The position numbers and the translations under genes were made by a program. From Escherichia coli (GTDB lineage Bacteria > Pseudomonadota > Gammaproteobacteria > Enterobacterales > Enterobacteriaceae), in the NCBI RefSeq assembly GCF_003790525.1, contig NZ_CP033635.1: a stretch of DNA of 64,000 nucleotides; one strand, given 5' to 3'. The notes beneath the pieces were generated by a model that was given only the letters and a program-made list of their open reading frames with translations, searched no databases and was not told the DNA's origin. Every line of letters starts with the position of its first letter. The first letter of the stretch is position 1. Shown here piece by piece: positions 33,284 through 38,083 of the stretch.

Positions 33284-34132
33284 ATGGCGACATACCTTAT
33301 TGGCGACGTTCATGGTTGTTACGATGAACTGATCGCATTGCTGCATAAAGTAGAATTTACCCCTGGGAAAGATACCCTCTGGCTGACGGGCGATCTGGTC
33401 GCGCGCGGCCCGGGTTCGCTGGATGTTCTGCGCTATGTGAAATCCTTAGGCGACAGCGTACGTCTGGTGCTGGGCAATCACGATCTGCATCTGCTGGCGG
33501 TATTTGCCGGGATCAGCCGCAATAAACCGAAAGATCGCCTGACACCGCTGCTGGAAGCGCCGGATGCCGACGAGCTGCTTAACTGGCTGCGTCGCCAGCC
33601 TTTGCTGCAAATCGACGAAGAGAAAAAGCTGGTGATGGCCCACGCCGGGATCACGCCGCAGTGGGATCTGCAGACCGCCAAAGAGTGCGCGCGCGATGTA
33701 GAAGCGGTGCTGTCGAGTGACTCCTATCCCTTCTTCCTTGATGCCATGTACGGCGATATGCCAAATAACTGGTCACCGGAATTGCGGGGGCTGGGAAGAC
33801 TGCGGTTTATCACCAACGCCTTTACCCGGATGCGTTTTTGCTTCCCGAACGGTCAACTGGATATGTACAGCAAAGAATCGCCGGAAGAGGCCCCTGCCCC
33901 ACTGAAACCGTGGTTTGCGATTCCTGGCCCCGTCGCTGAAGAATACAGCATCGCCTTTGGTCACTGGGCATCGCTGGAGGGCAAAGGTACGCCGGAAGGT
34001 ATTTACGCGCTGGATACCGGCTGCTGTTGGGGCGGGACATTAACCTGCCTGCGCTGGGAAGATAAACAGTATTTTGTCCAGCCGTCGAACCGGCATAAAG
34101 ATATGGGTGAGGGAGAGGCGGCCGCGTCTTAA
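33284..34132 (+). CDS. apaH: Bis(5'-nucleosyl)-tetraphosphatase (symmetrical), Ap4A hydrolase
   Basis: 282-aa [23 protein letters not shown]...; metallophosphatase motifs GDxHG, GDLVARG, GNHD. Confidence 0.96.
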
Positions 34133-34156
34133 CGCTTTACCATTCAGGGAGGAATA

Positions 34157-34756
34157 ATGGCTGACTATTTTGAAATACGTGCTGATTACAATCAGCACAC
34201 CATCACGGTTTATCAGGCTTACAATGATGCAATCGCTGACGTCGCCGTACGTGACGGGCGATTTGGCGCACCTTTTTCATTCAACCGCATGACCTGGATT
34301 AAACCCTCTTTTATGTGGATGATGGAGCGTAGCAACTGGGGACTGAAAAAAGATCAACAACGCATTCTCGCAATCCGAATCAAACGCACCTTCTTTGATA
34401 CATTGCTGGAACAAGCGGTGCTAACCACGCCGGAAGCCCATGTCTATCCACATGCAGGAGTTTGGGAAACGTTATTTGCGCAAGCAAATGTATATGTTCA
34501 GTGGGACCCAGAACGCAGCATAAATGGCAAAAAACTGGAGCACCGATCATTACAGCTTGGTATTTCTCGTAACTTGATCAGTCAATTTAACGAAGACGCC
34601 ATTGTTGCCATTGATGATCTGACGCCGCTGGTGCGAAAGTGTCATAACCTTTTGATAAACGGTAAAACAACACAGGCGAAATCCTTCCTGCCGCCAGAAA
34701 AAATTTATCCTGTTAGTGCAACTGCAAGAAAGGCTTGGGGAATGAAAAATTCCTGA
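34157..34756 (+). CDS. Hypothetical protein, 199 aa, soluble; strain-specific insertion appended to apaH
   Basis: ATG 24 bp after apaH stop with GGAGG 8 bp upstream; intact ORF MADYFEIRADYNQHTITVYQAYNDA...; no motif I can assign. Confidence 0.7.
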   Translation: MADYFEIRADYNQHTITVYQAYNDAIADVAVRDGRFGAPFSFNRMTWIKPSFMWMMERSNWGLKKDQQRILAIRIKRTFFDTLLEQAVLTTPEAHVYPHAGVWETLFAQANVYVQWDPERSINGKKLEHRSLQLGISRNLISQFNEDAIVAIDDLTPLVRKCHNLLINGKTTQAKSFLPPEKIYPVSATARKAWGMKNS

Positions 34757-34791
34757 GACAAATACGCGCCTATTAAGCGGAAAATATCTAA

Positions 34792-35241
34792 GTGCGACAA
34801 ATCAACGCCGGGCTTAATACCAGAGAAATTATTCTGGAAATGATTGACGAAGCAGATGAACCCCCGTTTGCTGAGCAGCGAACCTGGCATCGCAGGCGAA
34901 TCGCTTTTCTTTGTGAGTGCATCAGCGTTGCTGTCGACTACGGCTTCTTCTGTTCTGTCTCTCAGCAGTCAATAATGAACATAACCAGGATGGCTGAAGA
35001 TGTATGGATAACAGAAAGTAAAACGACCCAACTCATTGATATCTGGCAGCAACTTAAGCAGCTTTATCCGCCAGAAACTATTCCCTATACCCAGCAGTTA
35101 CCCGCTAAAGAATTGCTTGAACTGCTACTTTCCAGTCCTGACGATCTTCGAATAATTGAAATCCCTGACATCATCGGCGATGTTTTTGATGACCAAACCT
35201 GGATTCGATTATTCAAAAAACACTTTGCTGATGTTATCTAA
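34792..35241 (+). CDS. Hypothetical protein, ~133-149 aa, acidic; second gene of the apaH-folA insertion
   Basis: ORF from GTG 34792 (alternative ATG at 34840, MIDEADEPPFAEQ...); 35 bp after upstream ORF, same strand; start uncertain. Confidence 0.6.
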   Translation: MRQINAGLNTREIILEMIDEADEPPFAEQRTWHRRRIAFLCECISVAVDYGFFCSVSQQSIMNITRMAEDVWITESKTTQLIDIWQQLKQLYPPETIPYTQQLPAKELLELLLSSPDDLRIIEIPDIIGDVFDDQTWIRLFKKHFADVI

Positions 35242-35557
35242 CTACGATGTGATGTGTAACAATCTAAAATACATCGCCAGACGACAGACCAAAAAGAAAG
35301 TATTTAGCAGATACTCAACATTCTGACTTCTGTACAGAAATAGCAGAGTTTAAAAACTTAAAATTTCCGGTACTCATCAGAGAAACATCCTGTTTCTTCT
35401 GCAAGTTCATTTAATGCCGAGATGGCATCCTCGTTTACTTCAGTCCACTGTAGAGTGGCTTGAGGGTTTAGACCTACGCAATGAGCGCGACTCACAAAAT
35501 CGCGCTCACTGGTAAAATCAGACGTCTTATCGTTCAATTTGTAGTCATAGCAAAAAC

Positions 35558-38083
<2,526 letters not shown>

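Follow-up and report, generated by a model that had tools for sequence, protein, structure and literature searches.

The window examined here is a 64-kb stretch of Escherichia coli DNA, of which the 1521 nt that were queried are 100% identical to the chromosome of E. coli SMS-3-5 (NC_010498.1). At the locus of interest, the genes are arranged in the order rsmA, apaG, apaH, a gene for a DUF4291 protein, a hypothetical gene, a short tail, folA and kefC. According to the list of open reading frames and the annotation, apaH (ending at 34132), the DUF4291 gene (34157-34756, also identified by Pfam) and the hypothetical gene (34792-35241) lie on the plus strand, and folA (35558-36037) lies on the minus strand, convergent with the inserted genes. 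The two inserted genes make up a cargo segment (34133-35241, plus strand) that stands in place of the toxin gene ccdB. The tail, which is the subject of this analysis, extends from the stop of the hypothetical gene (35241) to the folA stop codon (35558-35560) and is exactly 316 nt long (35242-35557), in agreement with the ~315 bp before the convergent folA stop given in an earlier note on this DNA. The same note had allowed for the tail being ordinary folA downstream sequence, an option that does not survive comparison with K-12, where the folA-apaH gap is 77 bp long and contains a REP element, and where alignment reveals no similarity past a few bases after the folA stop. An Rfam scan of positions 34000-36300 returned nothing near the gathering score, and the promoter and terminator scan yielded counts at the level of shuffled sequences, with nothing that would explain the tail.

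On the minus strand, the tail carries an open reading frame that runs from 35537 to 35358, comprises 59 codons from a TTG start and ends in ALNELAEETGCFSDEYRKF. It has no in-frame ATG and opens at a TGA within the 3' end of folA, as had been described previously and as is evident from both the list of open reading frames and a direct reading of the sequence. The frame is matched by the Pfam CcdA profile PF07362 (E = 2e-8; 34.9 bits against a cutoff of 22.4), with residues 27-59 aligning to positions 39-71 of the 71-position profile, that is, to its C-terminal half only. It is collinear with intact CcdA(O157), the antitoxin of the chromosomal ccdO157 system, with which it shares 56% identity, compared to 21% with the F-plasmid CcdA. 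RefSeq/PGAP labels it a 'type II toxin-antitoxin system CcdA family antitoxin'; in the strain of the window, the call covers 35358-35495 (45 aa from a GTG start, WP_075210438.1), and in other strains the full 59 aa. No NCBIfam model assigned the frame to CcdA, and the intact CcdA(O157) itself matches NF010264 weakly; more generally, NCBIfam and PADLOC searches produced no matches for this frame, the DUF4291 protein or the hypothetical protein. A PDB sequence search with the 59-aa frame returned no CcdA, and its only hits, the designed repeat proteins Cake and Scone, resulted from summed weak repeats and were set aside as spurious.

The earlier note had hesitated between a remnant of a third gene and a mere insertion boundary. 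The first option can be made specific, because the frame matches PF07362 and is homologous to CcdA(O157) at the same chromosomal slot: it very probably represents a ccdA antitoxin gene in a degenerate state, of the type found in the chromosomal ccdO157 system, and hence a molecular fossil. The second option holds only insofar as the ccdA remnant forms the folA-side edge of the variable segment. That the frame is a chance ORF in ordinary folA downstream sequence or at an anonymous insertion boundary could be argued from its shortness and its missing ATG, but this reading deserves practically no credence in view of the significant CcdA profile match, the collinear homology with ccdA(O157), which occupies this same position on the chromosome, and the unrelated sequence found downstream of folA in K-12.

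The ccdAB(O157) islet, known from O157:H7 and present in about 37% of E. coli, occupies the same slot in the same orientation, with ccdA next to folA, and the relic conforms to this placement in that it lies between folA and apaH, proximal to folA and on the folA strand. The nucleotide identity between the two is ~80% over the last 77 nt and about 63% overall, and the other edge of the island in the window carries the same variant of the apaH 3' end. Unlike the intact islet, however, the relic is devoid of ccdB, of a promoter/operator and of a working start, and has suffered a 14-codon internal deletion. The F-plasmid CcdA (PF07362) consists of an RHH domain and a disordered C-terminal CcdB-binding domain; the C-terminal pattern W..N......G.F.DE.R.. 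of this protein is kept in the relic, whereas the RHH is not intact and the relic is neither located next to a toxin gene nor autoregulated.

The lesions were mapped by aligning the tail DNA with two intact ccdAB(O157) loci and with K-12. In the intact loci, 85 nt separate the folA stop from the ccdA ATG and include a GTATAC palindrome, whereas in the window 9 nt remain (35549-35557), corresponding to an upstream loss of about 76 bp (alignment columns 55-130). GTATAC palindromes form the operator of the F-plasmid ccd system (PMC5389731). Given that the stretch containing the palindrome has been deleted, the promoter/operator region of ccdA is gone, and the promoter scan scored no promoter-like site pointing into the relic. 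Within the old start region (35534-35548, minus strand), delineated by DNA alignment and sequence reading, the ancestral ATGACT is kept, with the ATG at 35548-35546, but is now out of frame. Codon 5, counted from this ATG, is a TGA (35536-35534), and reading returns to the original frame through the loss of 1 nt near 35515; the distance from the ATG to a conserved CGCGCTC motif is 59 nt in the relic versus 60 nt in the intact gene. As a result of the TGA and the 1-nt deletion, the surviving ORF has only TTG and GTG start candidates, and its first ~8 codons are read in a shifted frame. In the commoner relic allele, the ancestral ATG has been changed to AGG.

Further downstream, protein and DNA alignments both place a 42-nt in-frame deletion (35450|35451; junction at 35448-35453, minus strand) between relic codons 29 and 30. 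The 14 codons lost are equivalent to residues 34-47 of CcdA(O157) and 29-42 of the F CcdA, and cover helix 2 of the RHH together with the first six residues of the CcdB-binding domain, according to the published domain limits (N-terminal RHH; CcdB-binding domain, residues 37-72; PMC5389731). No intact N-terminal RHH DNA-binding/dimerisation domain is thus present. By contrast, the CcdB-binding tail retains about 30 of its 36 residues, which is why the relic still matches the CcdA profile and is annotated as an antitoxin. An independent 18-codon in-frame deletion (MSATLTVALNAELKKHAA) is found at almost the same place in a 59-aa CcdA(O157) variant (P0030), and the near coincidence of the 18- and 14-codon deletions hints at a deletion-prone stretch in ccdA.

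There is no adjacent, co-oriented ccdB downstream of the relic; instead, the next gene is convergent and unrelated. In the 116-nt spacer (35242-35357) that separates the stop codons of the relic and the hypothetical gene, where ccdB would have begun, a Smith-Waterman comparison with ccdB(O157) detected no ccdB remnant (score of 16 against a shuffle mean of 16.7). Two alignments of the spacer with the ccdB start made by eye (35330-35350 and 35264-35277) were rejected, as the Smith-Waterman scores were no better than those of shuffles. On the opposite edge of the island, the apaH 3' end matches that of a ccdAB strain without a difference as far as the stop codon and exceeds that of K-12 by 6 nt, the divergence starts exactly at the apaH stop, and in intact loci the ccdB stop overlaps apaH; furthermore, a ccdAB strain encodes identical ApaH and FolA proteins. 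Because both edges of the island are ccdO157-like, we infer that the ancestral locus contained a ccdAB islet and that the cassette of the DUF4291 and hypothetical genes took the place of ccdB. Judging from these comparisons, the tail would in all likelihood be the folA-proximal end of a former ccdAB islet of a diverged lineage, with its ccdA now decayed. Decay is also seen in other strains: in PEC1020, an intact ccdA is accompanied by a ccdB that is interrupted by an internal stop (869-1183 of its locus), and HH45 has only an unannotated 74-nt ccdB fragment left in its genome. These two states are consistent with toxin-first decay.

The cargo that stands in place of ccdB consists of two dissimilar genes. 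The DUF4291 protein is full-length (PF14124, E = 2e-68); a 2025 bioinformatic survey predicted for DUF4291 an atypical ADP-ribosyltransferase-like fold with QAY and WIK motifs, both of which are visible in the window protein (VYQAYND and MTWIKPS, respectively). The hypothetical gene matches no known family and occurs almost exclusively in Escherichia; the coordinates in the comparison loci are L006:951-1418 and L015:5001-5570. A homologue of 189 aa, 56% identical, occurs in a more distant enterobacterial metagenome contig (folA 83% identical), where it is found alone between apaH and folA, without DUF4291 or the ccdA relic, which makes the hypothetical gene a recurrent occupant of the slot, independent of DUF4291. 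In some E. albertii, the gene is uncalled or truncated to 94 aa, with DUF4291 intact (4139-4738 in the comparison loci). The copy in the window (stop codon at 35239-35241) is six codons shorter than the common 155-aa form, such that in most alleles the gene runs 18 nt further into the spacer, and its dN/dS is high, about 0.38. The hypothetical gene is thus itself in decay, which argues against an essential antitoxin or immunity partner of DUF4291.

The inverted repeat gagcgcg/cgcgctc to which the earlier note had drawn attention is indeed present (35483-35489 and 35501-35507) but is larger than was stated. Its perfect core is 9 bp long (TGAGCGCGA, 35482-35490; TCGCGCTCA, 35500-35508) and extends to 12-nt arms that are 11/12 complementary (92%; 35479-35490 and 35500-35511) around a 9-nt loop, the entire GC-rich hairpin, delimited by repeat search and RNA folding, being contained within the relic (35479-35511). 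The minus-strand RNA, which is folA-sense, folds at -27.4 kcal/mol (z = -6.7 versus shuffles), whereas the corresponding segment of the intact ccdA(O157) gene is unstructured (-12.6 kcal/mol, z = +0.5). Complementarity of the arms rose from 7/12 in intact ccdA to 11/12 in the relic, and the changes include a paired one where the stem ends. The hairpin is therefore a derived feature absent from intact ccdA, and decay alone is insufficient to account for it.

One explanation for such a structure would be that the relic DNA has been co-opted at the RNA level, with the hairpin serving as a stabiliser or barrier at the 3' end of the folA mRNA and also blocking antisense read-through from the convergent DUF4291 and hypothetical genes, a role that one REP element may play in K-12-type strains. 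Besides its stability and the increase in complementarity relative to the unstructured ccdA counterpart, the position of the hairpin is suggestive, 47 nt downstream of the folA stop and between convergent genes. In K-12, a REP hairpin occupies the equivalent position, likewise GC-rich and shortly after the folA stop. However, the two gaps share no similarity beyond a few bases, and the relic hairpin derives from coding sequence and is present in a single copy in the window. A REP element was accordingly ruled out, given that the only copy in the 64 kb (with two mismatches allowed) aligns to ccdA coding sequence. So was a Rho-independent terminator: directly after the stem-loop, the minus strand reads UUGCGUAGG and the plus strand CUGGUAAAAUC, with no U-tract on either, and the terminator scan did not score the structure.

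The lack of a U-tract means that the hairpin is not an intrinsic terminator, and in ccdO157-type strains folA is not followed by a comparable hairpin, so the gene can do without one. Furthermore, some relic alleles carry stem-breaking changes (A18T and C20Y), and any 64 kb of sequence can be expected to contain a few repeats as large as this one. The window contains nine inverted repeats of the same class, three of them true stem-loops, and the one in the relic is not statistically remarkable. The other two true stem-loops, with repeats of at least 12 nt, lie at 805-834 and 14713-14745; one of them (AAAAAACCCGCGC/GCGCGGGTTTTTT) has the look of a bidirectional terminator, and the remaining one is a 16-nt perfect repeat (AAGAAAGCAAGGGGGG/CCCCCCTTGCTTTCTT). 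Imperfect repeats can be perfected by quasipalindrome correction through template switching, and this neutral process may have perfected the hairpin. Overall, co-option as a structural element of the folA mRNA strikes us as quite improbable, and a selected role for the hairpin as unlikely.

In E. coli O39:NM F8704-2, the relic is interrupted by IS621, a member of the IS110 family (1349-2625 of its locus). The insertion site corresponds to positions 35474-35475 of the window, at the base of the hairpin, and shows a 2-nt AG/CT overlap. IS621 targets REP sequences, and the flank at the insertion, AGACCTAC, resembles the GGCCTAC tail of REP elements. The insertion of IS621 beside the relic hairpin in this one strain is thus a further parallel with the REP of K-12.

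The distribution of the relic was assessed in 5426 complete E. coli genomes, with the relic defined as the full-length tail at no less than 95% identity. The tail was detected in 535 genomes (9.9%) and the whole insert in 536, whereas ccdB(O157) is present in 2028 (37.4%), always as a single copy beside apaH. About 2860 genomes (about 53%) display neither state, having a K-12-like REP-type gap or another arrangement. DNA resembling ccdA of either kind occurs in 2564 genomes, and subtraction of the 535 relic carriers leaves about 2028, which matches the count for ccdB(O157) and implies that relic and intact system are alternatives at a single locus; by these counts, none of the relic carriers among the 5426 complete genomes has ccdB(O157). 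Beyond E. coli, the island order apaH, DUF4291, hypothetical gene, relic and folA is found in E. albertii and E. whittamii, and the same island is present in a fourth Escherichia lineage, whose sequence was assembled from sequencing runs. No closer intact parent of the relic emerged from a HMMER search against 1.84 billion protein representatives, a set in which the clustering at 50% identity could hide one, or when 100,044 species genomes were scanned for the pattern; both searches recovered only relic alleles, in Escherichia, and CcdA(O157), at about 57% identity, is its nearest intact relative.

Differences between the relic and ccdA(O157) are distributed over codon positions 1, 2 and 3 as 15, 17 and 32, respectively. 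This third-position excess indicates that most of the divergence arose while both genes were still coding, and the relic accordingly stems from a distinct, once-functional ccd lineage rather than from a recently decayed allele of the E. coli ccdO157. The history of the island differs from that of its surroundings. When the window is compared with E. albertii or E. whittamii, the flanking genes show dS of 0.27-0.45, whereas dS of DUF4291 is 0.06-0.09 and the relic and spacer differ by 2-5%. The low divergence of the island relative to its flanks implies that the island, including the relic, moved between species after their split, presumably through recombination in the conserved flanking genes folA and apaH. 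Positions 35365-35590 of the window (226 nt, comprising the relic and the last 33 nt of folA) are identical in the fourth Escherichia lineage, in which the adjacent folA has a dS of 0.37 and DUF4291 a dS of 0.23 relative to the window. The identical stretch reflects either a very short recombination patch or local constraint, and the exchange of the island between species appears to be mosaic.

Does the relic still evolve under constraint? In the fetched alleles, which form a small sample, the relic ORF has nine nonsynonymous and three synonymous polymorphic sites, with a site ratio of about 3.7 and an omega of about 0.8; the value for DUF4291 is about 0.1-0.2, and that for folA lies below 0.05. 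At least 17 different amino-acid substitutions, scattered evenly over the relic peptide, are recorded in the protein database, among them G50E, which affects a glycine that is invariant in functional CcdAs. In allele P0009, the C-terminal part of the relic is frameshifted. The near-neutral ratio, together with the frameshifted and IS-disrupted alleles, shows no sign of purifying selection. Besides the derived hairpin, three observations count against the pseudogene reading: the frame is open in most of the alleles examined, across four species; the last ten residues, GCFSDEYRKF, are nearly unchanged; and in the comparison with E. albertii, the tail differs at 10 of 316 nt and DUF4291 at 11 of 130 synonymous sites. 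The lower divergence of the tail could stem from weak constraint, or from the usual excess of synonymous-site rates combined with small numbers.

The open frame invites the alternative that the relic encodes an orphan mini-antitoxin, that is, a C-terminal CcdB-binding segment translated at a low level from folA read-through, which would act in anti-addiction and protect against ccdB(O157)-type toxins arriving by recombination or on mobile elements. The part retained corresponds to residues 43-72 of the F CcdA, most of the 37-72 domain which is able to bind CcdB on its own (PMC5389731), and anti-addiction has been documented for a chromosomal ccd system (PMC2654758). The frame open in most alleles of four species would fit this scenario, as would the lack of a predicted terminator between folA and the frame. 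On the other hand, signals for expression are weak, there being no promoter, no ATG and no evident Shine-Dalgarno sequence, and the dimerisation domain is missing, as are the six residues with which the binding domain begins. In addition, the 9:3 ratio of nonsynonymous to synonymous sites is near neutral, the binding segment, including G50, is mutated as often as the rest, and frameshift and IS621 alleles exist. We regard such a mini-antitoxin as very improbable. Taking both forms of retained activity together, the prospect that the relic is not inert, whether through immunity conferred by its CcdB-binding tail or through recruitment of the hairpin as a folA 3'-UTR element or antisense barrier, is a slim one; if either were true, it would explain the persistence of the frame and the hairpin across four Escherichia species.

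The degenerate ccdA of a former islet remains the preferred reading, and with its promoter, start codon, ribosome-binding site, dimerisation domain and toxin missing and its constraint relaxed, the relic is best viewed as a pseudogene that drifts. As a protein, it most likely does nothing; at the RNA level, it is probably transcribed passively as a 3' trailer of folA, because no predicted terminator separates the two. The 'non-coding' label that the earlier note gave to the tail is therefore defensible for a decayed gene without purifying selection, yet RefSeq annotates a CcdA-family CDS here. The sequence of events may have been as follows. The ccdB toxin gene would have been lost first, its slot being taken by the DUF4291 and hypothetical genes, and ccdA, with no toxin to neutralise, would then have decayed. 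The promoter/operator was lost, the start was disabled by a nonsense codon and the 1-nt deletion, and the loss of 14 internal codons destroyed the RHH DNA-binding/dimerisation domain. What is left is a fortuitous TTG/GTG-started frame that still covers most of the CcdB-binding tail (about 30 of 36 residues). The whole unit of relic, spacer, hypothetical gene and DUF4291 has subsequently passed between Escherichia species, presumably by recombination in the flanks.

Arrangements of this kind are not without precedent. The abstract of a 2009 study by Mine and colleagues is said to describe a class of folA-apaH regions in which a large DNA piece contains a ccdA(O157) remnant and ORFs of unknown function, and reportedly also an IS-containing variant of the region. 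This remnant class appears to be exactly the arrangement of the window, with its two ORFs and a ccdA remnant, and is not known to differ from it, and the IS-interrupted variant presumably resembles the IS621 form of O39:NM F8704-2. A literature search for papers mentioning a ccdA remnant produced nothing useful. The folA-apaH interval is a plastic locus with decaying ccdO157 (PMC3184786; PMC7232551; PMC2654758). Our analysis adds to that class the exact lesions, the frequency in 5426 genomes, the occurrence in three further Escherichia lineages and the evidence for interspecies transfer. The arrangement is thus already annotated in RefSeq and, reportedly, already described.

Overall, the relic is no new gene but a molecular fossil of a familiar kind, located at a spot already recognised as variable. 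It bears on inventories of toxin-antitoxin systems, in that the RefSeq name attaches an antitoxin to about 10% of E. coli genomes, such that censuses which count it as an orphan antitoxin overcount. Furthermore, the relic provides a worked example of the death of a chromosomal toxin-antitoxin islet, in which the toxin would have gone first and the antitoxin drifted afterwards, the decayed scar being carried between species inside a small replacement island at a recombination hot spot.
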